A stretch of DNA of 64,000 bases from a virus, in IMG/VR virus record IMGVR_UViG_3300029319_008466, positions 1 to 64,000 of that record. The stretch is one strand, 5' to 3'. The translations under genes and the position numbers were made by a program. Within the stretch, counting starts at the first letter, position 1; the number at the start of each line of letters is the position of its first letter. Positions 3,421 through 63,512 of the stretch are shown here, piece after piece. The notes under the pieces were generated by a model that searched no databases, was not told the DNA's origin, and was given only the letters and a program-made list of their open reading frames with translations.

Positions 3421-3421
3421 A

Positions 3422-4192: not shown

Positions 4193-4201
4193 GAAATTGA
4201 A

Positions 4202-37160: not shown

Positions 37161-40100
37161 ATGTCAATTTGGGGTAACAAACCATCGTCTGAATCTTTTC
37201 CATTTATAGAGATTGATGATTGGCAATATAAAGATGAGTGTCATCCATACACCGATGGAGAAGGTTTTTTATATATTGTTGTGGAAAGTGAGTATTTGTC
37301 ACCCGGAAACGATAAAGAAAACCGATTAGCTGAAGCAAGAAGATATGGCGTAGAAAAATTACTTCAATTTTATGGAAAAATGCAAGACGAGGCGACAGTT
37401 GACCAACTTGATTCTGTTGCAGAAACTCCCGATTATCTTGTAAATTATAGACCATGCGGCAACATGATAGTTCTCGTAAGGGTACCAGTTGAAACTTTTG
37501 AAGCTATAGCTGATGATGACACTGAATGTGATGTAGCACAAAGACTGCCAAACCAAGTATCTGCTTTTTTATCCGTTGAAAATTATAGGCAACAAATTGA
37601 ATATGTTGTCAACGTAGTTGAATCTTTTATTCCTTTTATTGCGGCATCGGACCAATTTATTACAAATATTAATATAATCAAGGAAATGCGAAGACTGAGA
37701 AGAACCGCTGATGTTATAGAAAGATACTTTAATTTAAACAATATTTCTGCTTCAAACACAACAGAGTGCCCTCCGAACCTTGAAGATGTTTTAGAAATTG
37801 TTTATTCAGTGGAATACGACGTAATGTTTGCACTAATTGAAGGCAAGCAATACACAATTGGATATAACTGTTTTGTTGAAAACCCTTTATTAAATCACCT
37901 AACAACGGCTCATCTTTTGGCCAACTTAGGAGCAATGGAGGGTGAGCTTATATATGCATATAATGACTCTTTTAACATATTTGATTTTTTAGAAAAATAT
38001 CTTTTGCCAACTCCTATAATAATGCCAAAAGAAAAAGCAACAGATGGTCTTGCAAAATATGATGAAAACGGATTACCGCTTTCTCTGGCAGATATTGCAA
38101 AAATAATTACTTTAGATTTAGATGTTAACCTGTGCCCTACTGAAGAAGAGCGACTACAGCGTGAAAGAGTAATCTTGAGTCCCGTAACAAGAGCAAGCAT
38201 CGCTCGCGCAGCAACTCAAGCAGAAGAATTTGTTGGAGACAATAAGCTTTCCTCAAAAGGAGTGCAGGATCTTGTCGAACAAATGAGCGCCATAAAAGGT
38301 TCTTTTACTTCAAAACAGGGTGCCGAGGAAGCGCTTGATCAACTTTATAACAACACAATGGCAAAAATAAACATTGGTTGTGTGCTGAATGAAACACTTC
38401 AGTGTCTTTTGGAAAAATCTATAACGCTCTTGGGTGAAGAACTTTTTGATGACCCGGATCTAGAAAAAATTATTAATATCAGAAAAGGCACTTTGGGACA
38501 GTTTGTGGATGGTGAGTGCAATCTTAAAAAATGTGATGGAACTCCAATGATAAATGCAGATATTGGGTTTCCTGTATTCCAGGGAATCACAATACCTGAT
38601 AATTTTCCAACGCTTAATTTCCTTGGCTCAACTTTTGAGAATGCTTTAGAGCAGTTGTATCTTGAACTTATCAATGCTTTGTCATCGTTAGTTTTGGGCG
38701 TGTTACAAAATTCTTGCGAATTGTTGTACAAAACTGCAACAGAAGGGATTGATGTTTCCTATGGAATGTTGGAAGATAATCTTCAAGATTGGATATCTAA
38801 ATCAATAGGTGTAAACTATGAAGACTTAAACGATCCAGAAGCTTGGAGTGATGCTCTTCAAAAATCAGGCGGTACTGGTTTTTTGGGAACTGTGGGAAAT
38901 TACGTTTCCAGAATGGAGGACTCTTTTGAATCGGTAATTTCAGGTACCGGAATTAGTATGAATTTGCCAATACCCGATCCAAACAATGCATGGAATTTTA
39001 ATACTGAAGAAGTGTTTATTTCTCCGCAAGTGCTATCTCAATTTTTCTCTGATACAAAAGATGCCGCAGAAAATGTTCAATCAATATTATCTCCAGCGGA
39101 GTCGAGAGATGTATATAAGGGTATTGCGAATGATGAAACTCTCACATTGATGTACAAGTGTGTGAACAAAGCTAATCCTAGTTTTGGTGCCCTTTTTAAA
39201 AACAAACATGAAATGGGTGATTTGTTTTCTGGATTGGGAAAGCTTGTTGATAATGAATTTCTTGATAGCCCGCTTCCCCTTGCCACAACGGTACCCACGG
39301 ATCTTTGCAATATTACCAACTCTGATAGTGCCGCCACAATAAGAGAGATACTGCTTAGTGAAAAAGATGATGAATTAACGACAGAAGAGATTAATGAAAT
39401 ATTAGATAAAGAAAAAAAACGCACTAAACAGAAATTAATACAAACATTTGAAATTTTGGAATTATATCAAAACGGAAATATTATATCAGGTTTCCCAAAA
39501 CTTTACGGCGGAGAAGGCGCTTTAATACCCGAAGCCCCTCCAATTATTAGTAATATAATAAAAAATTCAGTAGATGGGCTATTTGGCAGCGCAATATCTG
39601 ATTTTTCAACAAATATTGCCAACTATCAAGATTATTGGTTTGAAGACCCCGAGTTGGGACTTCCAAAAATAAAATTTGTATCAGTCCAAACAACCCCCAC
39701 GACAGTGTATTACAATGAAGATGGAAAGTTATTGGGGTATGATTTCGCGGATGCGTATTTATCTAAAGATGGACCCATATACGAGATCATAAAATATGTA
39801 AAAGATACTCCGACACAAGAAGGCACCACCGCCTATGTTTATAGCTACCCTGCAAAGTTCAGAGTGAGTCCATTTAGAGCGCTTTATAAAAACACAATTA
39901 ATCCATTAACATCTGGGCAAAACTCAGAGCGAATATTGTTAGATGATCAATTGAAAAATATATCATTTTTTAGCAAAGCAGAATTGAATAAGCGCCCAAC
40001 GCAAACCAGTGAGTATGAGGAAAACGCAGTTAAATACGATACTACTGATTATGATATTGGAAACAAAACCAATACCTTGGGTCAGACTAGTTTCAGAAAC

Positions 40101-42491
40101 CAATATGAGTATAAAAAAGAGTATAATTTTGAAATTAACTATCCTTTTCGTTGGTTGTCGGAATACGGTCTTAATAGAGAGGAAATAGGAAATGCGGATA
40201 TTTTCAAACAAATAATAAGGAACTCTTTAAACAAATATTTCACCTACTCACAAGATGCTACGCACATTGATGCAATTGTAGATGCACTTGGTGTGTCCAC
40301 TATTAATGAAAACATGTGGCTTGGATCCTCTAATTATGCCAACTTATTACAAAATATATTAAAAAGGTCAATAGAGCACGTCGCGCCTCTTGGTGAATAT
40401 CGGGCCCCGTCCTCAAGAGGTACGCCAGAATGGTCCATCCAAAGAGATAATGCGACGGCATGGAATACAAAGCTTGGTGAAATAGACTTAACATACAACA
40501 GTTCAGATATTTTTGGCTATAATACTCTCAAACAACAATCTGCCGATTTTTTAAACAACATCCTTAATATTGATAAAGCTGTTTTTTGTGACCCCCTTAC
40601 ACCTTTGAATAGAACAGGTGTAACATATGCAATAAAGATGCTAATAAGATCTTTTTTCGTTGAGCAGTCATATACAACAGTCCAAGTTTTTAATGCATTC
40701 GATGTATCATCTTATGGCGAATCACAATTATTTATTGACTATTTGTATAGCAAAATGGAAATTTATTTAGACAAAGTTTACGCTAATTTTGAAACCCTTG
40801 ATGGTCGGTTGTGGCAAGCTTTATTAGACGAGTGTCAAAATATATATGATATTCGAATAGCACTCGGAGAAGAGTTGCCGACAGTTAACAGTTCCGAGGG
40901 CATTTTTAAATACTTTATTCAAGAAGAACTAATAGAGATTCATGCAAATATAGAAAATGCCATAGATACACTGTATCCAGATTATGAGACATTTAACCAT
41001 TTTATAATTGATAAATTGTTTCCAAGTTTGGCTGCCAGCACCAACGCTGTTGAACAAAAATACGAGGCTTCGATTCCATCGAAACAGTCAGGAACTTTTA
41101 CACAAAATGTAGTGGTAGGAACTCCTGATTTCCGCTCTGGAAAGATGCTTCCACCTGACGCTTCAGATGCTTGGTTTGAGGCATTGGCAAATACATCAGA
41201 TATAATAGAAAAACCAAAGTGGGAGGATGTGAACTTTAGTTTTCCAGCATATTTTGATGAATCTCACAAAGAACAGATGAAGCAAGATTTTGAAGAAATT
41301 ATAAATACATATTGGGATGCACTTCGCGAAGCCCGAGAAAGCGCCTCCAATAATACTGCCGACGACATCTACCCTGAAATACCTCAAGATTTAAGAGATC
41401 TCAACAGGAAAACCTTTGATAAAAACACATTAGAACAGGTCGTTATTGATGATTCCAAAGATATACAAGAAACAAAAATTTCTTCTTATCAGTTTGAAAA
41501 CGTAGGCTTTGGCGAGGAATCATACCAATACCCAAACGTTGCCACAGTAACTATTGGAATTAACTTTAATATAGACATTACTGCTGATGTACAAGTAGAA
41601 TATGACGCAACAAGTGAGTATTTAGCAGGACAAGAAGACTCTCCAATCTACAATTCATTCGAGATTTATAATCGAGTCAGCGATGATCCAGATTCTGTGG
41701 AGAAAGAAGGGACAATCGACATTCAAGACAGTGAAGTAGAAATAAACGTTGGCGGGCCTCTTATTGAATCTTATGTAGAGTACAAAAAGAAGGGTGGAGA
41801 CACCAACGTGATGGGAGTTAACGCTTTTGTAAGGGAGCAATTATCAAATGAAAAATTAGATGCAAAGTTTAAAGATGTGTATGAATATATAATATTTGGT
41901 AGAAGAGTGTGTCTTATCTCTGAGCCTTCTTTCTCAGACACAACCGCCAACTCAACCCCATCGCAACGGAAGACTGGAACAGTTAAAGACGAAGTTGGCA
42001 AATTAACAAACGTTACCTCGGTATCAGAAAAATATAAAGTGTTTGAAATGAAAAAACAAGAAAGAAGAATTAATGGACGACAAACAGCATATGATTATAT
42101 TTCAATACCCCTTGTCTCTGTTGAGTGCGAATACAGCCCATCTGATCTAACTTCAGATACGACGATTGAACAGGTGTTAAAAACATTCGAAGACGAATAT
42201 CACCAAAAAGTAAAAAATGATCTTAAAGCGCGATTGTTCGAAACAGATGAATTTAAGCTCTTGTTCGAACACTTGTTTCCTATGCGAGATATAGTGTCTT
42301 TGTTGTCCATATTCGAAGACGCTTATTTATCTGATTCTGATTTAAGACCAAAAACTGCGGCATCGCCGATTCAACAGATTATGGATGATACAAAATTATC
42401 AATATTACAAGTATTTGTAGCATCTTTATATGGAAATGGGAAAATATCTTACCCTGATCCATTTATTGAAAAAGCCGGTGGCTTCTTATAA
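37161..42491 (+). CDS. Large acidic virion/baseplate-region protein of unknown function
   Basis: 1776-aa ORF between the spike-like gene and gp25. Confidence 0.6.
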   Translation: MSIWGNKPSSESFPFIEIDDWQYKDECHPYTDGEGFLYIVVESEYLSPGNDKENRLAEARRYGVEKLLQFYGKMQDEATVDQLDSVAETPDYLVNYRPCGNMIVLVRVPVETFEAIADDDTECDVAQRLPNQVSAFLSVENYRQQIEYVVNVVESFIPFIAASDQFITNINIIKEMRRLRRTADVIERYFNLNNISASNTTECPPNLEDVLEIVYSVEYDVMFALIEGKQYTIGYNCFVENPLLNHLTTAHLLANLGAMEGELIYAYNDSFNIFDFLEKYLLPTPIIMPKEKATDGLAKYDENGLPLSLADIAKIITLDLDVNLCPTEEERLQRERVILSPVTRASIARAATQAEEFVGDNKLSSKGVQDLVEQMSAIKGSFTSKQGAEEALDQLYNNTMAKINIGCVLNETLQCLLEKSITLLGEELFDDPDLEKIINIRKGTLGQFVDGECNLKKCDGTPMINADIGFPVFQGITIPDNFPTLNFLGSTFENALEQLYLELINALSSLVLGVLQNSCELLYKTATEGIDVSYGMLEDNLQDWISKSIGVNYEDLNDPEAWSDALQKSGGTGFLGTVGNYVSRMEDSFESVISGTGISMNLPIPDPNNAWNFNTEEVFISPQVLSQFFSDTKDAAENVQSILSPAESRDVYKGIANDETLTLMYKCVNKANPSFGALFKNKHEMGDLFSGLGKLVDNEFLDSPLPLATTVPTDLCNITNSDSAATIREILLSEKDDELTTEEINEILDKEKKRTKQKLIQTFEILELYQNGNIISGFPKLYGGEGALIPEAPPIISNIIKNSVDGLFGSAISDFSTNIANYQDYWFEDPELGLPKIKFVSVQTTPTTVYYNEDGKLLGYDFADAYLSKDGPIYEIIKYVKDTPTQEGTTAYVYSYPAKFRVSPFRALYKNTINPLTSGQNSERILLDDQLKNISFFSKAELNKRPTQTSEYEENAVKYDTTDYDIGNKTNTLGQTSFRNQYEYKKEYNFEINYPFRWLSEYGLNREEIGNADIFKQIIRNSLNKYFTYSQDATHIDAIVDALGVSTINENMWLGSSNYANLLQNILKRSIEHVAPLGEYRAPSSRGTPEWSIQRDNATAWNTKLGEIDLTYNSSDIFGYNTLKQQSADFLNNILNIDKAVFCDPLTPLNRTGVTYAIKMLIRSFFVEQSYTTVQVFNAFDVSSYGESQLFIDYLYSKMEIYLDKVYANFETLDGRLWQALLDECQNIYDIRIALGEELPTVNSSEGIFKYFIQEELIEIHANIENAIDTLYPDYETFNHFIIDKLFPSLAASTNAVEQKYEASIPSKQSGTFTQNVVVGTPDFRSGKMLPPDASDAWFEALANTSDIIEKPKWEDVNFSFPAYFDESHKEQMKQDFEEIINTYWDALREARESASNNTADDIYPEIPQDLRDLNRKTFDKNTLEQVVIDDSKDIQETKISSYQFENVGFGEESYQYPNVATVTIGINFNIDITADVQVEYDATSEYLAGQEDSPIYNSFEIYNRVSDDPDSVEKEGTIDIQDSEVEINVGGPLIESYVEYKKKGGDTNVMGVNAFVREQLSNEKLDAKFKDVYEYIIFGRRVCLISEPSFSDTTANSTPSQRKTGTVKDEVGKLTNVTSVSEKYKVFEMKKQERRINGRQTAYDYISIPLVSVECEYSPSDLTSDTTIEQVLKTFEDEYHQKVKNDLKARLFETDEFKLLFEHLFPMRDIVSLLSIFEDAYLSDSDLRPKTAASPIQQIMDDTKLSILQVFVASLYGNGKISYPDPFIEKAGGFL

Positions 42492-42523: not shown

Positions 42524-42925
42524 ATGCCTGGAATATCTCCAAAATTACCATTATCTTTAGATCCGGTTGACGGCTATAGATTAAACAAAAATCTTAAACA
42601 AGTAATACAGCAAAATTTAAAAATGTTAGTTTTAACTGCACCAGGAGAAAGAATTATGATTCCTGAATTTGGTGTCGGGTTAAGAAATTATTTATTTAGA
42701 AACGCAACCAATCACACATTCATGGAAATCGAAAATCGGATAATGCAACAAGCCAGTTACTATATGCCAGGAATCAATATTAACAAAGTTGAGTTTCGCA
42801 CGGAACGTCGCGACGAAGCATCAATGGTGATTGAAGGCACATCCCCCACAAACTACCTACAGATTAGAATAATATATGATGTGCCATCGCTGTTTATTTC
42901 TAATGCTTTGACAATTAATTTATGA
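42524..42925 (+). CDS. Baseplate wedge / sheath initiator, gp25/GPW-like
   Basis: QNLKMLVLTAPGERIM.PEFGVGL..YLF signature. Confidence 0.9.
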   Translation: MPGISPKLPLSLDPVDGYRLNKNLKQVIQQNLKMLVLTAPGERIMIPEFGVGLRNYLFRNATNHTFMEIENRIMQQASYYMPGININKVEFRTERRDEASMVIEGTSPTNYLQIRIIYDVPSLFISNALTINL

Positions 42926-42957: not shown

Positions 42958-44760
42958 GTGCCAAAAAGAAGAGAAAACATCGATATAAATTATCTTAGCA
43001 GAGACTTTCAATCAATAAAAGATGATTTGACCGAATATGCTAGAAGATATTATCCTGACACATTCAGAGATTTTAGCGATGCTGGCTTTGGCGCTCTAAT
43101 GCTTGATATGGTCTCATATGTTGGCGATGTTATGTCTTTTTACTTAGACTATCAAGCGAATGAAAGTTTTCTTTCAACTGCTGTCGAATATGAGAACGTT
43201 TTAAAACACGGTCAATCGATGGGGTATAAGCACCAAGGCGCTAATTCTACTTATGGTACCGTAACACTTTACATTACAGTTCCCTCGGCAGACAACGGAG
43301 TTGGGCCCAACGATGCTGCAATACCAATATTGAAAGCAGGAACACAGTTTATGTCTGAAAACAATTCTATTTTTACACTAATGGAAGATGTGAATTTTGC
43401 TGATTCTGTAAATGATATGGTAGTTGCCAACACAAGCACATCTACCGGAATGCCGTCTCAATATGCTATAAGAGCCACCGGACAAGTCGTGTCTGGAGAA
43501 AATAGATTTAAACGATTTACGGTCGGATCTTTTCAAAAATTTAGAGTTTTAAATCTTGGCGGCAATAATGTTACAGAAATCTTATCTGTTTATGATAGCA
43601 ACGGAAATAGCTATTATGAGGTAGAACACCTTTCCCAAGATACAATTTATTTGCCAATTACAAACACGGATACAACGACCAACGTGCAAACACCAACTAT
43701 AATCAAACCAGTTGTTGTGCCCAGGAGATTTATTGTTGGTAAAAATCGATTTTCGACAAACTTAATTTTTGGATATGGTTCTGATACAGAGCTAAATGCA
43801 TCATCTTTAGTAGATCCCGCTAGTATTGTCATGGACTTGCATGCAAAAAACTATGTTACCGACCGTGCGCTTGATCCTTCAAATCTTGTCAAAACTGATA
43901 AATTTGGCGTAGGTCCATCAAATACTGACATATTAGTTACTTACCGCACAAACACAAACGAAAATTCAAATGCATCATCCAACACAATAACAAGAGTTGT
44001 CAGCGCGGATATGCAATTTAAAGATCCGGTTATGCTTAATACAGGAATAATGAATTCTGTGCAATATAGTTTAGAGGTTAACAACGAAGAACCAATTCAA
44101 GGCGATGTATCGCCGCCAAACCTAATTGAACTAAGAGAATTAATCCAAGGATCATTCTCAGCACATAACAGGGCGGTTACGGCAGAAGATTATAAGGCAT
44201 TAATTTATACCATACCATCTCGTTTTGGAACTGTATATAGGTGTTCTGTTGTGCAAGATGTTGATTCAAATTTAAGAAATATTAATATTTATACAATTTG
44301 TCGCTCAAACAATGGGTACTTAGAAGTCACAAACAATGTTTTGAAAGAAAATATTAAGACATGGTTAAATACTAAAAGAATGATAAATGATTCAATTGAT
44401 ATTTTAGACGCAAAAATTGTAAATCTTGGAATAGAATTTGAATTATTATCAGAGCTTTCAGTAAATAAAACAGTTGTTCTAAACAATGCTATATCCGCAT
44501 TGAGTCGGTATCTTTTAGACCCTGGCGAAGTTGGAGAACATTTTGGAATTACGGATATATATTCTATCTTAAATGATGTTCCGGGTGTAGCAGACGCAAC
44601 TTATGTGAGTGTTTATCAAAAAAGAGGCACTGGATATTCCAGCGTTAGTATGGATGTTAAGAGTCAAATGACTGCTGATGGTAGATTTATAAAAGCTCCT
44701 AAAAATGTTATATTTGAGGTTAAATATCCAAGCTCTGATATTCAAGGGACAATCAAATAA
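42958..44760 (+). CDS. Baseplate wedge subunit (T4 gp6 / J-like)
   Basis: RDFQSIK..L, YVGD..SFYLDYQANE.FL.TA, FG.G, RAVTAEDY. GTG start. Confidence 0.88.
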   Translation: MPKRRENIDINYLSRDFQSIKDDLTEYARRYYPDTFRDFSDAGFGALMLDMVSYVGDVMSFYLDYQANESFLSTAVEYENVLKHGQSMGYKHQGANSTYGTVTLYITVPSADNGVGPNDAAIPILKAGTQFMSENNSIFTLMEDVNFADSVNDMVVANTSTSTGMPSQYAIRATGQVVSGENRFKRFTVGSFQKFRVLNLGGNNVTEILSVYDSNGNSYYEVEHLSQDTIYLPITNTDTTTNVQTPTIIKPVVVPRRFIVGKNRFSTNLIFGYGSDTELNASSLVDPASIVMDLHAKNYVTDRALDPSNLVKTDKFGVGPSNTDILVTYRTNTNENSNASSNTITRVVSADMQFKDPVMLNTGIMNSVQYSLEVNNEEPIQGDVSPPNLIELRELIQGSFSAHNRAVTAEDYKALIYTIPSRFGTVYRCSVVQDVDSNLRNINIYTICRSNNGYLEVTNNVLKENIKTWLNTKRMINDSIDILDAKIVNLGIEFELLSELSVNKTVVLNNAISALSRYLLDPGEVGEHFGITDIYSILNDVPGVADATYVSVYQKRGTGYSSVSMDVKSQMTADGRFIKAPKNVIFEVKYPSSDIQGTIK

Positions 44761-46331
44761 TGGGTATTAAAAGATATACGGCGACAGAAGATACAACAAT
44801 TACCAACGCTTATAAGCCAAACTTAACAAGTCGTGCCACAGGTTCAAATATGGGTTTGTCTGATTCGCTAGAGGTGTTTAGGATTTATGGTCAAGAATCT
44901 TCTGGCTCAAGCGAACTGTCAAGGATACTTGTTAAATTTCCTGTCACGGGAAGCAATTCAATTAAATCAGATCGTGCAGCAGGCACTATTCCAGAAAGTG
45001 GTAGTGTCAATTTTTACCTTCGCATGTTCAATGCTGAACACCCCTTTACATTGCCGCGAAATTTTAGTTTAACTGTAGCTGCTATTTCTCGTTCTTGGAA
45101 TGAAGGTACTGGAATGGACATGGATGCATATTCCGATTTGGGTGCGACCAACTGGCTATCCGCCTCCAGTGGTTCCGCTGGCGCTGTTTTATGGACTTCT
45201 CAAGGAGGCGATCTTCATGCCTCTCCAACGTACACAGTAGACTTTGATAAGGGCACTGAAGATATTGAACTGGATATTACCGCATTAGTTGAGCAGTGGA
45301 TATCTGGTTCGGCAGCAGGCGGTAGTGGAATGGGGCCAGGACCGGGAACCACAAAAGGAAAACAAAATTATGGTGCAGCTATATATTTAACAAACGAAAC
45401 GGCATATTCTTCTTCATATACAAAAAAGTTTTTTGCCAGAGGATCTGAGTATTTTTTCAAACGCCCAATAATTGAAGCAAGGTGGGATTCTGCAAGAAAA
45501 GATAACAGAGGCAATTTCTTTTACAGTAGCTCTTTGGCTCCAGCGGTTGATAACTTAAACACATTATACTTGTACAACTATGTTCGTGGAAGATTGGTGG
45601 ATATTCCTGGTCTTGGTAGCACCAACAAAATATATGTAAGCCTTTTTTCTGGCACAGCCGACAATACAACGACTTCCGGCTCTGCGCTTAATTTGTCAGC
45701 CGGTGGCGGGGTTGTCACAACTGGTCACATTAATGCCACAGGAAGTAAAATCGCTACAGGAATATATTCGTGCTCACTGGCGTTGACTGCTGCGAATCCT
45801 AATAATGTTGGTCACTACCCTGGTACAAATTTAACAAAAATATTTGACGTGTGGCACACAAAGAGCGACGGTGCATCTATTGGTAGCATTGTGTATCATA
45901 CTGGAAGTTTTAAGCCACAAGTGTTAGATTCCTCTGTTCCAAACCCTTATTCAAAATATGTTCTAAATATAACCAATTTAAGAGATGTATATTACACAGA
46001 CGAAACTGTGCAATTTAGGGTGTATACGCGGCAAAAAGACTGGAACCCTACAATTTGGACTAAGGCAAGTATAGATCCCGAGCTTGAAATTATAGAAAGT
46101 GGCGCTTATAAAGTTGTTAGAATTATTGATAATTTTGACGCCATTCCGTTTGGAACGGGCAGTGACTTGCAGACCCAAGTTTCATATGATGTAAGTGGAA
46201 GCTATTTTACGTTAGACATGAACATGTTAGAGACGGGATACGCATATGGAATTAAGTTTGCTTTTTATGATGGTGTAGCAGCAACATGGAATGAGTATCC
46301 TGACGTATTTAAATTTAGAGTAGAGGATTGA
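44760..46331 (+). CDS. Virion structural protein, [S/T]GS-rich
   Basis: DTTI, SRILVKF, WNEGTG, W...GGD (DNRLRE-like). I counted 11 [S/T]GS by hand. Confidence 0.65.
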   Translation: MGIKRYTATEDTTITNAYKPNLTSRATGSNMGLSDSLEVFRIYGQESSGSSELSRILVKFPVTGSNSIKSDRAAGTIPESGSVNFYLRMFNAEHPFTLPRNFSLTVAAISRSWNEGTGMDMDAYSDLGATNWLSASSGSAGAVLWTSQGGDLHASPTYTVDFDKGTEDIELDITALVEQWISGSAAGGSGMGPGPGTTKGKQNYGAAIYLTNETAYSSSYTKKFFARGSEYFFKRPIIEARWDSARKDNRGNFFYSSSLAPAVDNLNTLYLYNYVRGRLVDIPGLGSTNKIYVSLFSGTADNTTTSGSALNLSAGGGVVTTGHINATGSKIATGIYSCSLALTAANPNNVGHYPGTNLTKIFDVWHTKSDGASIGSIVYHTGSFKPQVLDSSVPNPYSKYVLNITNLRDVYYTDETVQFRVYTRQKDWNPTIWTKASIDPELEIIESGAYKVVRIIDNFDAIPFGTGSDLQTQVSYDVSGSYFTLDMNMLETGYAYGIKFAFYDGVAATWNEYPDVFKFRVED

Positions 46332-46332
46332 T

Positions 46333-49300
46333 ATGGCAATAAAAGATCTTTTTAATCAAAGAAGTTCTAACGTTGTCGTCTCCTCTAGTGCGTTAATTTT
46401 GGGAGAGGATGTAGAGTCATTAGGATATATCTCTGCTTTTGTTGAAGACGAGCAGCGGGTAGAACCACATGTTAATTTTACAAAGCCTGAAAATTTTGCC
46501 AAATATGGTTCCGCAGAACAGTATTATGACCAATCTATTAAATGGATCTATGGAGAATATCCGTATGATGGATCGTTAAAAGAAAAATATGAATGGCAAA
46601 ATAATTCTACATTATTAGATTTATACATTTATGATAATAGGTATCCAAAAACAACAGGATATGCTAACTTTTCAAGCGATGGTTGGGGCACACTAACTGC
46701 CTCTATGGTTATTGGCTATGGCGCACCAGCGACCACTAACTATGAATATATTAATTTTAAAGGCGGACCTAATTCGGAGTTTGGTTCGTCACTGGGTACT
46801 TCATCTTTAAAAGATGTTTTTGATTCAAAGTCAAATATTTGGGATAGTACTGTAACTGGGGCAGCCGGACCCATTACGGCAACAAGAGAATCAAATCTTA
46901 AAACTGATCTCGCCGAGGGCGTCACGGTTGAGTTCTGGCTAAAGACGGGCTCCCTGAGCAATGCACTAACAGAGAAACAAGTTGTTTTTGATCTTTGGAA
47001 TGGACAGGGTTCTTCGAGCGCTGATTATGGTCGTTTAAGAATTGAAATTGACCCTCTTTTAAGTGCATCATCACCTTTCAGGGTTACTGTATTATCTGGC
47101 GCTGTAGGACTTAGCACCTCGTCTTTGGAAATTGGCTCCAGTCTTGATTTAAATTCTTTTTCCGACTGGAATCATTATGCTTTTAGTTTTGTCAACAATG
47201 GCGACAACATTACAACCAAGCTGTATGTTAATGGAGATTTGGATGAAACCATAACTACCGGCTCCAGTATTGGTGAGGTTAGAAAAGATTTACAGGCCAA
47301 TATAGGCGCTCTTTTGACTGGTACGTTTAACATGAGGGCAACCCCTACTGGTCCGAATCTTGGCTGGGGTAAGCTCTCTGGGTCGATGGATGAGTTTAGG
47401 TTCTGGAAAACAAAAAGAAGCTCAAAAGATATTGGTCGATACTGGTTCACTAGCAACTTAGGAGGAGGCACTAACACTGACAATGCTAATTTAGATTTAG
47501 GTGTATATTATAAATTTAATGAGGGCATTGTAGACGATAGCGGAATAGACAGTATAGTTTTAGATTATTCAGGAAGAGTTACAAATGGTACATGGACTGG
47601 CTATCCAAGCTCAAATGCACGAAATACAGGATCCGCTATTGTCTCCGCTAGTGCAGGAGTTGAGGATTTAGATCCAATTATATACCCGACACACGCCGAC
47701 GTGAGCAGTCTTAGCACAGAATTGCTTGCTTCTGGAACGCTTTGGGATTATGAGAACAACTCATCTTTATATTATTCAATGCCAGCTTGGATTATTGAAG
47801 AAGATGAGGGAAATGGTGGAAGCACAGGAAATTTAAAAAAATTAACCCAAATAATGGGCACCTATTTAGATAATTTAGATCTTTTAATAGGAGAGCTTCC
47901 TAAGTTAAATGTTGCATCTTATCCAAGCAGCAGTGTGCGCGGAAAACTTAATAAACCATATCCATACATGCAAACCGCAGTCGGGTCACTTGGAATGCAT
48001 GCGCCTGAATTATTTTCAAATAGTGATCTTATTGAATATTTTGGAAACAGAAACGAAACGGTAGAATTTGAAGAAGAGATTCATGATGTAAAGAATTTAA
48101 TTTATAATAACATCTACAACAACTTGCCCGACATATACAAAGCCAAAGGAACCGACAAGGCTTTTAGAAACTTAATTCGTTGTTTCGGCGTCGGTGACGA
48201 CTTAATAAGACTAAACATATACTCAAATAACGATACTTATAAGTTTGAAACCAAAAGAAGGCAAGCATCTTACAAAACAAAAGCTGCAAATTTTAACAAT
48301 GTAGACAGATTTAATAGCACAGTTTATCAATATGCAGATTCCACTAATCCAAATAGTGTTTCTTATATCTCGGGTAGTTCGACAGACAGCAAAACATATG
48401 AAGATTCTTTTCCAATTACATTAGAGACGGAAATAATTTTCCCACAAAAAATACCAGCAACAGAAGACAATGCTGGATCTCAAGAATTTAGGCATATTAC
48501 GGCATCTCTTTTTGGAATGCACACAGCAATAGCATCTCAGTCTATGGCTGGAACAGAAACCGACACAACATGGCATACAACTGATAATGCCAACCTTCAA
48601 GTTTATGCAATAAGAAGTGGCACCCTTACTAAAAATGTCAAATTCATGTTGACATCTTCAGCCCCTGCACACATTCCAGAATTGACAAGCAATTTCTTTT
48701 TTAACGTCTATGAAAATCAAAAATGGAATTTTGCTGTCAGATTAAAGCCTCATGGATACCCACAAGCATTTGCTAGCGGAGCACTGGACAACAACTATAT
48801 AGTTGAATTTTATGGTGTAAGTTACATTGGTGATAGAAAAGTTGATGAATTTATCGTAAGCGGAACAGTTGCAAAAGATGCAGCAGAAACTTTTCTAACT
48901 TCTCCAAAAAGAATATACGCTGGCGCACACCGAACTAACTTTACAGGCGCTGTGTTGCAGCGAACAGATGTAAAAATAACATCTTGTAGATATTGGTTTG
49001 ATTATTTGAATAATGAAGCAATTCAAAATCACGCTATGGATCCAGGCAATTTTGGAAACCCAAATCCATCAAGAGATGCTTTTTTTCTGGAAACAGATTT
49101 ATCCAACGTCGAGGTGCCAGAAATTGAATCTCTGGCACTGTCTTGGAATTTCGAATCACTAACCGGATCTAATGCATCTGGTCAATTCACTGTTCAGGAT
49201 GTTTCGTCTGGGTCTGTGGCCGAAGTGGGTAGATACAATTGGTTAGGAAAAATTCTTAAGTATCAACACACTGGTCGAGGCGATTTATTTCCTGCAAATT

Positions 49301-52300
49301 CTACTGGATCAATTGAAACACAGTATTTGCACGCAGCCCGACAACAGTTACCAGAAACAGTATTTGGCGACGACAATATACGTGTTCTTTCTCAAGCTGA
49401 AACAGAAGTTTTTACGAAAGAAACAAGACCGTATAAAACATATTACGCTTTTGAAAAAAGTATGTATCAAGTAATTTCTGATGAAATAATACGATATTTT
49501 GGATCAATAGTTGACTTTAACAATTTAATTGGTGAGCCAGTTAATCGATATAGACCCGAATATAAAAGCTTAAAATATCTACGTCAGTTTTTCTTTGAAA
49601 GAATTGGCAACACTCCAGATTTAGATAAATTTGTAGAATATTATAAATGGATTGATTCAACACTTGAAGCCATGTTGATGGAGCTTGTGCCAGCTTCTGC
49701 ACAGACTAGTGATGGTATTGATAACATTGTTGAGAGTCACGTATTAGAAAGAAACAAGTATCAAAATAAATTTCCAACACTTGAGTTTGTTAGACCCGAC
49801 CCAGAGGGCGCAACTATTACAATCAATAAACTTCTTTATAGTTGGAAAACCAATCATCACCCATTAACCGGATCTGATAAAAATAAAGAACTTAATCCAA
49901 ATGTTGGACTACAAGCAACAAACTGTGGCTGGTGGAAAGGTAGAGCAGAGAGAGATGTAACCCCTCTTAATAGCGGAGATACGGGAATTGATTCGGATAG
50001 AAACAGGGTTTTAAGTGCATCACTTCAGGCTCTTGAAAGAAACTGGTCTACAGTACAGAGATATGTCGTTGAAAAAACAAAAGTTATTCATGGTGGGGTT
50101 AACTATTCTGACAACAAAAAACAACATTTTTATCGCGGTATTAATTTTCCACACGGTTCTGTGACAAGCATAGGTATACCACAAAACGTGTTAAAAGCCG
50201 ATCAAGTCGAGCTTATACCTTTAAAAGATTGTGATGATGTCGGATCTGTTTTTGGTTTTGGTAGCATTGCAGATGCGGCTCGCTCTGGTAGCGATGGAAG
50301 TTACGAAGTTTACCCCAAAAGAAAATATAGCTATGGCACCAGAATTGGTAGAAAAACATTTGATTCTGGTTCTTTTGATGGTATTAAAGCTGAAATCGCA
50401 ATGCCCTTTAATATTATGAGTGCGTCAACAGCCATGAAGGGATACAACAAGGGTATTCACGAGGGCTTTCACTCTGGAACTCAGCTCACCAACCTTCATA
50501 ATGATGGATATGGTCAACTAAATGAAGTTCCAATGCAAGGACCATTTACTGAAAAATATGTGGGAGGTCATCAAGCTCGACATGTTAGACTTAATTATTC
50601 TTCTTCAACACGGGTTGCGGGTGATAGAGCAGCAACTGTCAACAACTTGGATGGACAATATACACGACCAGAAGCATATCGTATTTTGCTCGGCGGCGGA
50701 GCCGGGAGTTCGGGTTCGATTGGAATTACCGGACCTGATTATGGTGGTCCATACCCCGACGTTGAAAGATACAGAGCGTGGTTTTTCCGAGAAGAAACAG
50801 CAAAGCGTCCCGTAAATATTAGAAACATTTTACAAACAACCGCATCAGTTGATACGGTTTTATCCGGTGTGCTTCAGCATGGTCCAATTGGCAACTACGA
50901 AAAAACTTATCAAGTTGTACAAACTTCTGGTCGCAGTACAAACAATTTTTGGTTTAATGATAATGGCGCTACACTTCCTACAATGTATATTTCCGACAAA
51001 CCAAAGACAACCAATGTTCATACGCTTGTAGGAGTGCGTATTAACGCAACACAGGTCGAACGCCGAGGTAACACTTTCATACCAGGAACTTACTACGAAG
51101 CGGGGGTTAGCGAATTTATTATGGGTCTTCATAAAAATTCAAACCTTTATGCTCCACAAGACGGCACGATTCCTGCTGCAAGAAGAGCCGACAGAACGGT
51201 TTATCAACTTCCAAGTAGAACCAAACAAGACGCTGTTATTGTTGAAAGATTTTCCGCTCCTGGTGGTCCAGAAATCAGCTCTCTTGGCTTCTTAGATATT
51301 ATGGCAGCCGAGAAGTCGGTATATAATGCGCTGCCCTTTAGAAACCTTACAGTGAGGGGTTCTGGATCTGGCGAACCTTCAATCTCTGGCACCATGAGGA
51401 TAGTTGATCACACCGGACACAGACGAGGTTTACGAACACTGCTTTCTCTCCACTGCGGACCCTTTGGTACAGATGGGACATTTGGTAAAATTAATCAATA
51501 TACATCTGAAGAGCGCCTTGCACAAGGTGATGCGGTTTCTGCCTCATTCCATAAAACTAATAGAAACGCACGACTTGTAATTAAAACCGATGTTAATACA
51601 AGTTTTGATTCTAAGTTTCAGTATGGCACTGGCTCTGTTTACGACAACTGGTATGTGCAGCACCCCATACCACAAAATGATTTTCAATATTCATGGATTA
51701 GTGGTTCTTTCTTGTCTGGAAATGCACCGTTTGCTCATGCCCCAAGATCAGGATTCGGCTCTGGATCTTCGGGATTTTTTAGTGCAATAACATTTATGTC
51801 ATCTAGTTTGCCCAACTATGCTGCGGGAGTATATTCGAATGGACAGGCTGCACCACGCTTAACACCTGTGGATTTTGTTGGATTAAATACTTTATTCTAT
51901 GAGGCATCGGACACTGATACAAGAATTTTTGGCGGCACTGAAGGGGCAGGCGGGACAATCACTCTCCAGTTGCAAGCCTCGGCATCGGAATATTTAAATA
52001 CAAGCATTGCCGCCTTGGACCACACTGCCTCAACGAACGGCATATTGAACAATAGAAATGGTCCATTCGGCTTCAATTCTTGGAAACAAGTTCGAGTTGG
52101 CAACAGTGCTATGGCGCGTGCCATGAGAAAAGACAACATAGTCAGCACTATTGATCCCGCAACGTTGTCCGAAAACCAACCAGGGTTACATTATTATAAT
52201 TGGTTGCCAAGTCCTTCAACTAATGCTCAAATTTTTGGACCACCGTTATCCGGTCCATCTAAAACCACTCCTGTTTCTAATGTACTTAAATCAGTTTTAC

Positions 52301-55300
52301 AGTATCATGAGCCAAACTTGTTGCAAAAATATTATCCCTTTTCTATAAACGCAACTTTAGATCCATCTTTTTGGCCAAGCAGTGGATTCAAAAAAGAAGT
52401 TAAAGTAGATGCATATGCAGCTTATGGAAATAAAAAACATCATTTTTCTAATTCTAAATTAAACAATGCGCTTTTAATATCCGATGATGTGCTAACCCCT
52501 GCCGATGAATTGTTTGATGAAGTTACAGACGATCTAAAAGGCACCCTCAATAGTGTTAAATATTCTGAAGCACTTTACCCCAAGGAGCTAAATGTTTATC
52601 GCCCACATATTCGCAAAAGAACAACATTTAAATCATTTTGGAGAAATGTGCGGCAAGATCGAACTGAAAAAGATGAAACTTCGCCACTCGCCAGTAGTGT
52701 AAAGAATTCGCAAGGCATACCAATGGCAACGCAAAGTATCTGGCCATTGGACGGAAGATTAAGTATTGATCCACAAGTTACAACTGATGCTTTTGTTAAT
52801 GTTGCCGCCAACGCCTTGACCAGAGGCGGCGGCGAAGGAGAACTTCAAAACTCAGTCAACACAGTTCACAGCCCTTATCACTCCGAAGGGTTTTCGTGTA
52901 GTGATGCTGGTGGCGACAGGGACATTACTGGATCTGCGACTTATAATAGGCGACACTTGAACATAACCGGGTCAAGCGCATGGTCTTATTCTAGCAATGC
53001 TGCCAACGCTATCACTTATAGAGGCGACTTAGTTCCTTTTTCGGGCGATGCTCCATGGGATGCGGCCGCTCAATCAGGCAAATATCCATTTTATGATTCA
53101 TATTCAGACTATGTTCACCAAATGAGGTTGATTGGAAAAGATTATTCAATTATTCCAGAATATAGAATGAGCGAAAGAATGGATGATGTTATAGAGGAGG
53201 GGATAGATCCTTTCAACGATGCATCGTTATTTTCTTTAACTGGTGCAGTCGCAACTGCTCGCTCAAGTGAACAGACAGAATTTTATAAAACGTATAGCCA
53301 TTCAGATTTTATGAAATATTTTGATGTTGTTCAAAATGATCTTTACACTTCAGAATGGTCATATTCAGCGGAAGAAGGAATTCCTGGTCCCACATCGCTC
53401 ACAGTTCGTTGTAAAGCATTGCTAAAATTGTTGCCGTATGAGGGTTTTTATCCTGCCCAGAGAACGTTACAATTAGCAAGTCTTTTTTCAAAATCGTATG
53501 GTGAATATGTTGATTTAACTGGATCTACGCCTGCGATTAGCTATAACCCCCGTGAATCCCGCTGGAGGGCTTTCTTGGCACCAATGTTTGCTCCGGGTAT
53601 TATGTTTAACACAATTAAATCGGGTATTGCTGTTGATTATCCTGTTATGACTGGCGGCTGTGTTTTGGATTTCGCCCCTTCTGCTGATAGGAAAAACTAT
53701 GCACTCGCGGAGCCAGTTTATTTTTCTTTCCGTGTGCCCTTTGAAGCGCTCGTCGAACCAGAAAATTATATCGCCAATCACGAAATTATAGATCTTGAAG
53801 TTCACCCTTCTGCTGCTATTAATGCAACCGCTTCATGGAATGGTGAGGGTGACAGTCGATATAAACTTGCCATGCACAACTTTTTAGCAGAGACGCCAGA
53901 TTTTTTCTTGGAAAATCAAACATTTACGTCTTTCTTTTCAAATCCCTCTTCTAAGTGGAAAAGTTTTGATCGCTCTAAAAGTTATAAAATGAGGGTAAAA
54001 ATTCGCAAGTCATATGCATCAAACTGGAGTGGCGACCCTTTGTTGGAGATGCCCGGTGGACCTCCTCAAATTGTTTCGGGCTCTGAAACCATAGTTATGT
54101 ATAGTCGCCCATCTGCTTTTGGTCCTCCCACTATGGGAAGCCCAACCGGCAGCAAACCAGAGCAACATGGCGCAGGCGGCGGATCTTTTGAGGGATACAA
54201 CGCTCCGTTTACGCCTCCCTATTATGACGGTTCAGCCTGGGTTGATTTAGAATATAATCCAAGCCTACATGCTGATCCCAACCCCTCTAGTGTTAATGAT
54301 TTGCTTACCAAAATTACTGCTTCTTATTTAAGATACGAAAACTGGGCAGGAGATGTCGAAGGCTTGGGAGGGCCCCAATATGGAGAATATATTAACCACA
54401 ATGCGGTGCAAATATCCTCATCAGTAAATCTTTTTGGCACCACTAATGGTCTCAAAGATTTACTCAAATATAGCGGAGTTGATGCATCAGGAGAAGAACA
54501 GTGGGTTATACAAACAAAGTTTGAAACTCCAATACTTAATTTTATCGGTGCCCGCGACACGGCAACTTCGATTGCATCGCTTTCTTTTGCTGCGGCGGCC
54601 TCATATTGCTCAGGAGGTGCGTACACAAGACCGATTGGAATGTGGCACCAGTATGGTAGATTACCCGAAGGATCCGAGGGAATTTATTTAGGCATACAAG
54701 ACTTTCCAAAACCCATACTGAGCCAACATAACTCCAGTGGATCATTAGCAGATGCTGTTGGTTTTAATAAAAAAGATGAAAAACTCGGAAAAGTCGCGGC
54801 ATCCAAAACAATTCGAGAAGCTGTTGTTGCTGTTCCGTTTGTTGAAAGAACAAATAACAGGAAATTCTTTGAAATTGATCGACATAAGATTGATACAATA
54901 TTACAAAATCCAACTGCCACGTCATACACACCAGATGATTCAATCAAACATATGGTTGATGCAATGCAAAGATATGTATTTCCACCAAGTATGGATTTTA
55001 TAAATTATCCAAACGAAGTCGGAGCATGTTTTTCAATGTATATTTTTGAATTCGAGCACCAATTGAACCAACAAGATCTTGTTGATATATGGCAAAACTT
55101 ACCACCTCGCATCGGAAGAGCATTTGATCCAGATGCACCATTGGACACGGATGAAATAATGCAGACCAAAGAGGTTACACACGTATTGAACAATAAAGAA
55201 TTATTAGAAGATGTAGACTCTAAGCTTCAGTGGATGGTGTTTAAAGTAAAACAACGTGCCCAAACAAATTATTGGAAAAAAACCGTAGCAAACAATCCCG

Positions 55301-55638
55301 ATCTTTCGTTACCTTCGGATGTTGCAAATGCATTTACAGAACTTGAATTGCAAGAATCCGCCTTTTCTACTGGACCCTCTTCACTTGGTTTGCAAGAACA
55401 AATTGCCAAAACAATAAACGAGCCAATAACTAAATACGCCGCAGGCGGCGCTGGACAAGGCGGAATACTCAAAATTGATAAACAAATAGTGAACTATAAT
55501 TGGCCATACGATTTCTTTTCTTTAGTTGAGCTTGTAAAGCTTGAACAGGATGTGATATTCGAACAACAAGAAATGGCAGGATCTGGTGGATCCCAGGTGC
55601 CCACCACTGGTGAAGAACAGCAAGAGGAGGACGCATAA
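46333..55638 (+). CDS. Giant (3101 aa) virion/baseplate protein with a LamG/concanavalin-like domain
   Basis: TVEFWLK...WNHYAF...LYVNG...GSMDEFRFW (LamG), IYKAKGT..AFRNLIRCFG (wedge-like), and about 22 [S/T]GS. Confidence 0.75.
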   Translation: MAIKDLFNQRSSNVVVSSSALILGEDVESLGYISAFVEDEQRVEPHVNFTKPENFAKYGSAEQYYDQSIKWIYGEYPYDGSLKEKYEWQNNSTLLDLYIYDNRYPKTTGYANFSSDGWGTLTASMVIGYGAPATTNYEYINFKGGPNSEFGSSLGTSSLKDVFDSKSNIWDSTVTGAAGPITATRESNLKTDLAEGVTVEFWLKTGSLSNALTEKQVVFDLWNGQGSSSADYGRLRIEIDPLLSASSPFRVTVLSGAVGLSTSSLEIGSSLDLNSFSDWNHYAFSFVNNGDNITTKLYVNGDLDETITTGSSIGEVRKDLQANIGALLTGTFNMRATPTGPNLGWGKLSGSMDEFRFWKTKRSSKDIGRYWFTSNLGGGTNTDNANLDLGVYYKFNEGIVDDSGIDSIVLDYSGRVTNGTWTGYPSSNARNTGSAIVSASAGVEDLDPIIYPTHADVSSLSTELLASGTLWDYENNSSLYYSMPAWIIEEDEGNGGSTGNLKKLTQIMGTYLDNLDLLIGELPKLNVASYPSSSVRGKLNKPYPYMQTAVGSLGMHAPELFSNSDLIEYFGNRNETVEFEEEIHDVKNLIYNNIYNNLPDIYKAKGTDKAFRNLIRCFGVGDDLIRLNIYSNNDTYKFETKRRQASYKTKAANFNNVDRFNSTVYQYADSTNPNSVSYISGSSTDSKTYEDSFPITLETEIIFPQKIPATEDNAGSQEFRHITASLFGMHTAIASQSMAGTETDTTWHTTDNANLQVYAIRSGTLTKNVKFMLTSSAPAHIPELTSNFFFNVYENQKWNFAVRLKPHGYPQAFASGALDNNYIVEFYGVSYIGDRKVDEFIVSGTVAKDAAETFLTSPKRIYAGAHRTNFTGAVLQRTDVKITSCRYWFDYLNNEAIQNHAMDPGNFGNPNPSRDAFFLETDLSNVEVPEIESLALSWNFESLTGSNASGQFTVQDVSSGSVAEVGRYNWLGKILKYQHTGRGDLFPANSTGSIETQYLHAARQQLPETVFGDDNIRVLSQAETEVFTKETRPYKTYYAFEKSMYQVISDEIIRYFGSIVDFNNLIGEPVNRYRPEYKSLKYLRQFFFERIGNTPDLDKFVEYYKWIDSTLEAMLMELVPASAQTSDGIDNIVESHVLERNKYQNKFPTLEFVRPDPEGATITINKLLYSWKTNHHPLTGSDKNKELNPNVGLQATNCGWWKGRAERDVTPLNSGDTGIDSDRNRVLSASLQALERNWSTVQRYVVEKTKVIHGGVNYSDNKKQHFYRGINFPHGSVTSIGIPQNVLKADQVELIPLKDCDDVGSVFGFGSIADAARSGSDGSYEVYPKRKYSYGTRIGRKTFDSGSFDGIKAEIAMPFNIMSASTAMKGYNKGIHEGFHSGTQLTNLHNDGYGQLNEVPMQGPFTEKYVGGHQARHVRLNYSSSTRVAGDRAATVNNLDGQYTRPEAYRILLGGGAGSSGSIGITGPDYGGPYPDVERYRAWFFREETAKRPVNIRNILQTTASVDTVLSGVLQHGPIGNYEKTYQVVQTSGRSTNNFWFNDNGATLPTMYISDKPKTTNVHTLVGVRINATQVERRGNTFIPGTYYEAGVSEFIMGLHKNSNLYAPQDGTIPAARRADRTVYQLPSRTKQDAVIVERFSAPGGPEISSLGFLDIMAAEKSVYNALPFRNLTVRGSGSGEPSISGTMRIVDHTGHRRGLRTLLSLHCGPFGTDGTFGKINQYTSEERLAQGDAVSASFHKTNRNARLVIKTDVNTSFDSKFQYGTGSVYDNWYVQHPIPQNDFQYSWISGSFLSGNAPFAHAPRSGFGSGSSGFFSAITFMSSSLPNYAAGVYSNGQAAPRLTPVDFVGLNTLFYEASDTDTRIFGGTEGAGGTITLQLQASASEYLNTSIAALDHTASTNGILNNRNGPFGFNSWKQVRVGNSAMARAMRKDNIVSTIDPATLSENQPGLHYYNWLPSPSTNAQIFGPPLSGPSKTTPVSNVLKSVLQYHEPNLLQKYYPFSINATLDPSFWPSSGFKKEVKVDAYAAYGNKKHHFSNSKLNNALLISDDVLTPADELFDEVTDDLKGTLNSVKYSEALYPKELNVYRPHIRKRTTFKSFWRNVRQDRTEKDETSPLASSVKNSQGIPMATQSIWPLDGRLSIDPQVTTDAFVNVAANALTRGGGEGELQNSVNTVHSPYHSEGFSCSDAGGDRDITGSATYNRRHLNITGSSAWSYSSNAANAITYRGDLVPFSGDAPWDAAAQSGKYPFYDSYSDYVHQMRLIGKDYSIIPEYRMSERMDDVIEEGIDPFNDASLFSLTGAVATARSSEQTEFYKTYSHSDFMKYFDVVQNDLYTSEWSYSAEEGIPGPTSLTVRCKALLKLLPYEGFYPAQRTLQLASLFSKSYGEYVDLTGSTPAISYNPRESRWRAFLAPMFAPGIMFNTIKSGIAVDYPVMTGGCVLDFAPSADRKNYALAEPVYFSFRVPFEALVEPENYIANHEIIDLEVHPSAAINATASWNGEGDSRYKLAMHNFLAETPDFFLENQTFTSFFSNPSSKWKSFDRSKSYKMRVKIRKSYASNWSGDPLLEMPGGPPQIVSGSETIVMYSRPSAFGPPTMGSPTGSKPEQHGAGGGSFEGYNAPFTPPYYDGSAWVDLEYNPSLHADPNPSSVNDLLTKITASYLRYENWAGDVEGLGGPQYGEYINHNAVQISSSVNLFGTTNGLKDLLKYSGVDASGEEQWVIQTKFETPILNFIGARDTATSIASLSFAAAASYCSGGAYTRPIGMWHQYGRLPEGSEGIYLGIQDFPKPILSQHNSSGSLADAVGFNKKDEKLGKVAASKTIREAVVAVPFVERTNNRKFFEIDRHKIDTILQNPTATSYTPDDSIKHMVDAMQRYVFPPSMDFINYPNEVGACFSMYIFEFEHQLNQQDLVDIWQNLPPRIGRAFDPDAPLDTDEIMQTKEVTHVLNNKELLEDVDSKLQWMVFKVKQRAQTNYWKKTVANNPDLSLPSDVANAFTELELQESAFSTGPSSLGLQEQIAKTINEPITKYAAGGAGQGGILKIDKQIVNYNWPYDFFSLVELVKLEQDVIFEQQEMAGSGGSQVPTTGEEQQEEDA

Positions 55639-63500: not shown

Positions 63501-63512
63501 CAGGATTTAAAT

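Follow-up and report, generated by a model that had tools for sequence, protein, structure and literature searches.

A Ser/Thr-Gly-Ser motif enriched in tail proteins of a T4-like phage clade is a candidate O-glycosylation signal

Introduction

Chlorovirus PBCV-1 encodes cytoplasmic glycosyltransferases (GTs) that glycosylate its capsid without the membrane machinery of the host. Its glycans are N-linked to the major capsid protein at Asn sites that are atypical, and the PBCV-1 protein B736L has a putative role only. Here, we describe a recurrent tripeptide, Ser or Thr followed by Gly and Ser ([ST]GS), in proteins of a viral particle that is encoded by a 64,000-nucleotide stretch of DNA (positions 1 to 64,000 of IMG/VR record IMGVR_UViG_3300029319_008466; "the window"), and a pair of family 4 GTs (GT4) that are encoded in the same window and may read this tripeptide as an acceptor signal. 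The window belongs to an 82,990-bp contig of an uncultured marine phage, which is a distant T4-like myovirus. Literature searches returned no description of a sequon of this kind in phages. To our knowledge, no sequon has been described for the one kind of phage virion glycosylation that we are aware of.

In mycobacteriophages, soluble phage-encoded GTs have been proposed to O-glycosylate the structural proteins of the phage in the host cytoplasm (Freeman et al. 2023, cited in PMC12619734), and PMC12619734 presents the modification as demonstrated, with the glycans located at the C-termini of capsid and tail-tube subunits. In Gram-positive bacteria, a conserved GT-B pair, GtfA/GtfB, primes Ser/Thr residues of serine-rich repeat adhesins in the cytoplasm. 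Its acceptor sequences have hydroxyl residues that alternate with a small residue (Ser-Ala/Val/Thr-Ser), and while the priming pair is conserved, the GTs that act after it vary, which results in lineage-specific glycans (PMC6973325). Bacterial autotransporter heptosyltransferases (BAHTs), as in the TibC/TibA and Aah/AIDA-I systems, hyperglycosylate Ser residues on the loops of a beta-helical adhesin, also in the cytoplasm, with the sites patterned over the solenoid; the BAHT enzyme is an iron-finger dodecamer that uses ADP-heptose (PMC4358343). Like the mycobacteriophages, the phage described here carries its own GTs: two GT4 enzymes, one GT2, one GT10-like protein and the product of one Maf-like gene.

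Results

Excess and specificity of the motif

Two proteins in the late gene block of the window are rich in the motif; their genes are on the + strand, as are all large genes of the contig and the gp25-like gene. The first is a 523-aa protein (44760–46331), the gene of which directly follows that of a gp6-like baseplate wedge protein. It contains 11 [ST]GS, with 1.10 expected. The second is a giant baseplate or fiber protein of 3101 aa (46333–55638), which contains 22 motifs, with 4.08 expected. In a few outward-facing tail and baseplate proteins of this phage and its relatives, the motif is 5–10 times as frequent as expected. The 1776-, 600-, 964- and 919-aa proteins of the window contain none. 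These counts are identical to those of a first-pass annotation made from the DNA letters, which reported 11 and about 22 motifs in the two rich proteins and none in the 1776- and 600-aa proteins, and its chance estimate of about 1 and about 4 is close to the computed values. None of 2000 global shuffles and none of 3000 block shuffles (blocks of 10–80 residues, means of 1.2–1.5 and 4.5–5.5 motifs) reached the observed count in either protein, so the enrichment claimed in that annotation stands, and local Gly/Ser-rich composition cannot account for it. When all 8000 tripeptides are compared without bias in the two proteins, TGS ranks first (P = 2e-9) and SGS second (P = 2e-8), with the third tripeptide at 2e-4.

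The codons at the motif sites are varied (nine at position 1, four at position 2 and six at position 3), which means that the motif is not a DNA repeat, in agreement with the first-pass annotation. A cause at the DNA level (a repeat, a methylation site or a Chi-like site) is thus ruled out. In the full contig, 63 of the 72 [ST]GS motifs are concentrated in six proteins. Four of these are encoded past the end of the window (contig positions 64634–65833, 79022–79453, 79466–81229 and 81323–82990), and one of the four is a beta-helix-like repeat fiber with 18 motifs.

The anatomy of the motif was derived from position-wise enrichment pooled across the enriched proteins. Position 1 favors Thr (7.7-fold) and Ser (5.0-fold) over Asn (0.3-fold), Asp (1.8-fold) and Ala (1.6-fold). 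Position 2 is occupied by Gly (6.1-fold), Ala (2.8-fold) or Ser (1.7-fold), with the remaining residues at 1.4-fold or less and mostly below 1-fold, and position 3 favors Ser (6.1-fold) over Thr (1.3-fold), Asn (1.0-fold) and Gly (0.4-fold). The profile of Flavobacterium phage vB_FspM_immuto (immuto) matches this one, except for an additional Asp at position 1 (3.7-fold). Residues at the flanking positions −1 and +1 are hydrophobic, 1.4–2.3-fold over background, and there is no Pro at +1. The permuted controls G[ST]S, GS[ST], [ST]SG and S[ST]G are at 0.8–2.0-fold, and SG[ST], which overlaps with SGS, is at 3.2–3.4-fold. The related tripeptides listed in the first-pass annotation behave differently from one another: [ST]AS is enriched about 3-fold, but [ST]GT and [ST]GA are enriched weakly (1.1–2.1-fold). 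The permutations and the position profile show that the motif is directional and specific and can be written as hydrophobic-[ST]-[G>A]-S-hydrophobic. In its specificity, it looks like the recognition site of an enzyme.

Conservation, turnover and avoidance

The family of the 523-aa protein has more than 4000 matches in marine and other metagenomes; a tblastn search with this protein against cultured phages gave no match. The best 120 members of the family contain a mean of 8 motifs (1.1 expected), and six of the 11 sites (27, 80, 306, 381, 466 and 479) are retained in 63–95% of homologues. Position 1, which is nearly exclusively Ser or Thr, is the best conserved position of the motif, whereas Gly can be replaced by Ser or Ala, and Ser at position 3 by Ala, Asn, Thr or Gly. 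Sites 327, 381 and 466 have an invariant Thr, and several sites show strong conservation of Gly. In 80 IMG/VR relatives, the observed-to-expected ratio (O/E) is 6.8, with P < 0.001 in a column shuffle, in which whole alignment columns are permuted and the relatedness of the sequences is kept.

The family of the giant protein has an O/E of 4.7 (73 homologues). Five of its 22 sites are common to at least half of the homologues, and its rare, lineage-specific motif columns number 205, compared to 115–144 for the four clean permuted controls, in an alignment that is rough in the variable regions. The giant protein appears to retain its motif density while individual sites come and go.

The gp6-like family, encoded directly upstream of the 523-aa protein, is depleted in the motif. 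Its 78 homologues contain 4 [ST]GS in total where 33 are expected (O/E of 0.12, P = 0.002 in the same column shuffle) and 14 [ST][GA]S where 71 are expected (P < 0.001). The O/E values of [ST]AS (0.26) and [ST]SS (0.37) are also low, and those of AGS (2.8) and [ST]GA (1.5) are not. A 319-aa family encoded upstream contains one motif, with 7.7 expected (P = 0.02). The relatives of the 919-aa protein are found at six loci, which are too few for a family-level test.

Occurrence across phages

By tblastn, homologues of the first of the two GT4 enzymes (GT4 no. 1) are limited to 13 records of cultured or deposited phages, which include immuto, Microcystis phage Mel-JY01, Rhodothermus phage RM378 and LR756508, a 484-kb uncultured phage. 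Full-length gp6-like homologues are found in the records of immuto, Mel-JY01 and LR756508 only, and RM378 is not among them. The GT4 pair is present in all five long relatives of this phage and in immuto, Mel-JY01 and RM378. The [ST]GS count is 114 (44 expected) in a complete relative (G001), 93 (30 expected) in the 100 kb of immuto that were scanned, 52 (10 expected) in 42 kb of Mel-JY01, 51 (19 expected) in the whole genome of RM378, and 12 (6.5 expected) in LR756508, which has a homologue of GT4 no. 1. In phages with no GT4 pair, the counts are 8 (12.6 expected) for T4 structural proteins, 15 (10.8 expected) for the cyanophage Sf-CH1b of Synechococcus, 14 (10.4 expected) for Pseudoalteromonas phage XG4 and 14 (12.2 expected) for Caulobacter phage Cr30. 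As the T4 set comprises gp5–gp12 and gp34–gp37, among others, and the latter three phages are near expectation, the excess as a general property of tails and baseplates is ruled out. The GT4 pair is the sole GT element that is conserved wherever the motif excess occurs.

In immuto, the excess resides in the proteins encoded after gp6, the fibers and the spikes (26 motifs in one spike, with 5.9 expected), most of which have no BLAST homology to the enriched proteins of this phage. In G001, the enriched proteins are orthologues of those enriched here. The immuto major capsid protein (1 motif, 0.59 expected) and the RM378 sheath (1 motif, 0.6 expected) are not enriched; the capsid gene of this phage falls beyond the end of the contig. 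Among the relatives examined, none without GTs was found. Pontimonas phage phiPsal1, in which a weak GT1 homologue is located beside the capsid gene, has zero motifs in its structural proteins and is uninformative as an independent lineage.

Four phages also encode small proteins of 100–143 aa, with three to four motifs each, near their head or tail-tube genes (contig 79022–79453 here, 112076–112501 in G001, 131314–131739 in immuto and 25085–25387 in RM378). The G001 protein is the only one that is detectably homologous to that of this contig (45% identity), and a role as decoration proteins is conceivable.

Predicted structural setting

The AlphaFold (AF2) model of the 523-aa protein, with a predicted local distance difference test score (pLDDT) of 67.6, is all-beta. 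It consists of an N-terminal jelly roll similar to a carbohydrate-binding module (CBM), which is followed by Ig-like sandwiches, and the known fold that it matches best is that of a chondroitin-binding CBM (8wab). The AF2 model of residues 190–1010 of the giant protein (pLDDT of 69.8) contains a pentraxin/LamG-like lectin fold near residues 190–400 (PTX3, 9k6u, E = 5e-6), then a helical segment, the modelling of which is poor, and additional beta domains. The pentraxin/LamG-like domain (window 46900–47500) also has CBM40-like matches. The repeat fiber gives a weak bactofilin-like (beta-helix) signal, and searches of PDB sequences with the giant protein and the repeat fiber returned nothing meaningful.

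Mapping of the motifs onto these models, a check suggested by the first-pass annotation, places at least 16 of the 19 modelled sites at strand ends or in loops: all 8 of those in the giant protein and 8 or more of the 11 in the 523-aa protein. The motif residues are the first or last residues of a strand or belong to a loop, often immediately ahead of a strand. According to the predictions, four or more folds that are unrelated to one another contain the motif (CBM-like, Ig-like, pentraxin/LamG-like and beta-helix-like). Both motif-rich proteins start with predicted lectin-type jelly rolls (window 44760–45300 and 46900–47500), and the proposed glycan carriers may bind glycans themselves.

Glycosyltransferase pair and sugar island

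GT4 no. 1 (425 aa, 4202–5479; PF00534, E = 1e-12) has the EX7E motif EGFGLATLE and is the candidate priming transferase. GT4 no. 2 (422 aa, 5479–6747; PF00534, E = 1.2e-6), with the EX7E motif EGFGIPIFE, is its paralogue with about 21% identity. EX7E is kept in both copies here, in G001 and in immuto. By sequence, GT4 no. 1 is a generic GT4, the closest PDB relative of which is PBCV-1 B736L (3oy2, E = 6e-9). The order of genes in which a PD-(D/E)XK nuclease precedes the two GT4 enzymes (window 3371–6747) is shared with immuto and RM378 (L084, 8008–11927; L086, 8212–11893).

The pair is located at the head of a variable sugar-building island (7589–31583), for which Pfam scans show a GT2, thiamine diphosphate (ThDP) enzymes, two DegT aminotransferases, dehydratases, methyltransferases, a B12 radical-SAM enzyme, a GT10-like protein, a GDP-mannose dehydratase, a kinase, PanB and a nonulosonate module composed of NeuB, a CMP-transferase and a Maf-like protein. 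The pair itself is conserved, and the span from the pair to the homologue of the 523-aa protein varies among relatives (about 25–35 kb) and is longer here (40 kb). The Maf-like protein matches PF01973 with 32.6 bits (gathering score of 34.6) and has no NCBIfam match. Its domain is absent in all five long relatives, the 523-aa homologues of which, where counted, are motif-rich; the Maf-like protein is thus ruled out as a clade-wide transferase.

A tRNA-Asn (GTT) gene found by ARAGORN (window 15223–15299) lies between the Maf-like gene, which ends at 15196, and the NeuB frame, and overlaps the first ATG (15227) of the 310-aa NeuB open reading frame (ORF). The NeuB start is therefore probably further downstream, with the tRNA gene contained within the sugar operon.

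Genomic context

In the contig, a phoH–PIN gene, the PD-(D/E)XK nuclease and two tRNAs precede a 27-kb block of sugar genes, which includes the two GT4 enzymes. The PhoH protein has a fused N-terminal PIN domain (window 848–2173; PF02562, E = 1e-52; PF13638, E = 5e-24). A 244-aa protein (window 2400–3134) has a sub-threshold match to PF07737, the anthrax lethal factor domain family (20.9 bits, cut-off of 27.4), and this resemblance may be due merely to a common zinc-peptidase motif.

The late block, which comes next, includes a VanY-like peptidase and the 1776-aa virion protein (37161–42491; 0 motifs, 0.91 expected), which has no Pfam or PHROG match in profile scans. These are followed by a gp25-like baseplate wedge protein (42524–42925; PF04965, E = 2.3e-12), which has 0 motifs, the motif-free gp6-like baseplate wedge protein of 600 aa (42958–44760; phrog_219, E = 1.6e-19), the two motif-rich proteins and more large proteins. 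Downstream, the 964- and 919-aa proteins (56863–62517), the G001 orthologues of which have 0 and 1 motifs, are followed by a 300-aa protein and the start of a 366-aa protein (62598–64000), which are mildly enriched with 1 and 2 motifs (3 and 4 in G001). Past the end of the window, the contig encodes a primase, a T4-type terminase, a gp20 portal and an SbcD/SbcC protein of 1053 aa (contig 67330–70491), in which an SbcD-like phosphoesterase and an SbcC/SMC-like ATPase are joined in one chain, corresponding to a gp47–gp46 fusion.

Discussion

The tripeptide itself is very likely under selection. The first-pass annotation proposed that a short linear signal in some of the virion proteins is the target of selection, and this is well supported by the observed specificity, the family-wide excess and conservation with turnover of sites, the scarcity of the motif in the gp6-like family and its occurrence in unrelated folds. 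The best single explanation, to which we assign a probability of roughly 50%, is that [ST]GS marks acceptor sites for O-glycosylation and is recognized by the conserved GT4 pair. In this explanation, the modification of the motif, its nature as a sugar, the enzyme responsible and the acceptor residue are inferred. In such a mechanism, the motif or a strand-loop-strand element built on it would serve as an acceptor for O-glycosylation in the host cytoplasm, and selection would keep it in the peripheral baseplate proteins, the fibers and a few other particle proteins of an aquatic clade of T4-like phages. One or both of the clade-conserved GT4 enzymes would attach the first sugar to the motif hydroxyl, and the GT2 and the variable enzymes of the sugar island would then lengthen the chain. 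Each phage lineage would end up with its own sugar coat on the outward-facing parts of the tail, and inner baseplate proteins, such as the gp6-like wedge, would avoid the motif. The more detailed proposal that a GT4 pair specific to these phages reads [ST]-[GA]-S as a true sequon, with swappable islands that build lineage-specific glycans on outward tail proteins, is plausible and is put forward tentatively.

Several observations weigh against a glycosylation signal. Contrary to the first-pass annotation, the GTs are not adjacent to the motif-rich genes: the GT4 pair (4202–6747) is about 38 kb upstream of them, and the sugar island ends near 31.6 kb. In NCBIfam, the GT4 enzymes match no named family of protein O-glycosyltransferases. 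In RM378, the pair is located between the nuclease and a ribonucleotide reductase, amid genes of DNA metabolism and without a sugar island, and the second copy, alone among those compared, has lost EX7E. LR756508 has the GT4 gene, yet its excess is weak. The rest of the proteome displays no overall depletion of the motif (13 motifs here, 11.1 expected; 43 in the complete relative, 30.3 expected); a general depletion in all other proteins was thus not found, and avoidance is limited to particular inner-baseplate families, the gp6-like and the 319-aa families being the two shown. Finally, the phages with the GT4 pair form one clade, in which the gp6-like protein has about 30% identity, so the co-occurrence of motif and pair is not phylogenetically independent and is confounded by common descent. 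The co-occurrence anticipated in the first-pass annotation therefore stands for immuto, Mel-JY01, RM378 and G001, but within a single clade. Its suggestion that the motif is an acceptor sequon for the GTs gains from the conservation of the pair wherever the excess is seen, but the connection is circumstantial.

A serious alternative, which we consider less likely, is purely structural. The motif would be a clade-specific beta-strand cap or turn that is unmodified and has been inherited and multiplied in beta-rich fiber and adhesin-like proteins. The hydrophobic flanks also fit a strand cap, as does the location of the motifs, which both models place at the ends of strands, in hairpins and in loops. 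The motif is part of the repeating unit in repeat fibers, and the invariant Thr at three sites of the 523-aa family points to a constraint from structure at these sites; Gly is strongly conserved at several sites of this family. At residue 349 of the giant protein, the Gly directly precedes x-D-E-F-R and may be the conserved Gly of LamG-type domains. Furthermore, single fiber proteins of unrelated phages can have a similar excess (5 motifs in the 801-aa fiber protein of XG4, with 1.2 expected). However, position 1 shows no enrichment of Asp or Asn, the classical turn-formers and Asx-turn equivalents, and position 3 shows none of Thr or Asn. A structural cap would also have to account for the presence of the motif in four or more unrelated folds, the lack of excess in the structural proteins of T4, Cr30 and cyanophage, the turnover of sites at a retained density, and the depletion of the beta-rich gp6-like family below a phylogeny-aware null.

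It is improbable that the motif is a recognition signal for a purpose other than glycosylation, such as phosphorylation, acylation or docking of an assembly chaperone, with the GT4 pair and the island acting on DNA, host envelope precursors or small molecules. The data support selection on the peptide without tying it chemically to a sugar; the setting of the RM378 pair and the best NCBIfam matches of GT4 no. 1, which are the small-molecule transferases BshA and MshA, all far under the cut-off, would fit such a role. Against it, Pfam scans of the window revealed no clade-conserved kinase or acyltransferase, and all motif-rich genomes examined carry the GT4 pair. A search of five relatives (G001–G005), two of which are estimated to be at least 90% complete, found no thymidylate synthase or hydroxymethylase of the ThyA family, which makes the classical hydroxymethyl-pyrimidine route to glycosylated DNA unlikely. 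A compositional artefact, in which Gly/Ser-rich linkers swell the count, is ruled out by the block shuffles (means of 1.5 and 5.5 motifs even with 10-residue blocks) and the four non-overlapping permutations, although the enriched proteins are richer in Ser (10–11%) and Gly (8–10%) than their neighbors, and one site is in a Gly/Ser/Pro-rich insert (residues 182–198) while most are in ordinary, non-repetitive sequence.

If [ST]GS is indeed a glycosylation signal, the sites of glycosylation on phage particles would be predictable from sequence alone. An abundant marine and freshwater clade of T4-like phages would make its own sugar coat, the acceptor code of which would be simple and predictable, and the large islands of 'LPS-like' (lipopolysaccharide-like) sugar genes in marine phages would have a concrete target. 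Glycan coats of tail fibers might then influence how phages in the ocean recognize hosts, how sticky they are or how well they resist degradation. The cultured relatives immuto, Mel-JY01 and RM378 make the idea directly testable.

Compared to the C-terminal acceptors of mycobacteriophages, the candidate sites described here are tripeptides dispersed in baseplate and fiber proteins. Unlike the capsid and tail-tube targets of that system, the immuto major capsid protein and the RM378 sheath are not enriched, and the hosts and phage lineages are unrelated. Like PBCV-1, the phage would build glycans on its own structural proteins independently of host membranes. B736L is the nearest solved relative of GT4 no. 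1, a similarity that is limited to the generic C-terminal domain of GT4 enzymes.

Similar to GtfA/GtfB, this phage has two adjacent GT-B proteins (4202–5479 and 5479–6747, both PF00534) followed by a variable island. Unlike GtfA/GtfB, neither phage GT contains DUF1975 according to Pfam, and neither matches a GtfA/GtfB model of NCBIfam at E ≤ 0.01; the sole related NCBIfam match is SdgA, with 20.9 bits and a cut-off of 800. Both copies here keep EX7E, in contrast to a split into a catalytic subunit and a chaperone. These three features rule out membership in the GtfA/GtfB family. In addition, the phage sites are dispersed in folded domains instead of long low-complexity acceptor tracts, and there is no accessory Sec export.

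The resemblance to BAHTs concerns the acceptor, a Ser on a short loop between strands: most of the modelled phage sites are at strand ends or loops, and the beta-helix-like fibers display a strand-[ST]GS-strand arrangement. Unlike in BAHT systems, no TibC/Aah-type heptosyltransferase is present among the Pfam matches of the 34 largest window ORFs outside the late block, and the motif is not restricted to beta-helical targets but is also found in jelly-roll and Ig-like domains. By analogy, the closest mechanistic counterparts of the proposed phage system appear to be GtfA/GtfB priming and autotransporter heptosylation, with the phage enzymes belonging to neither family.

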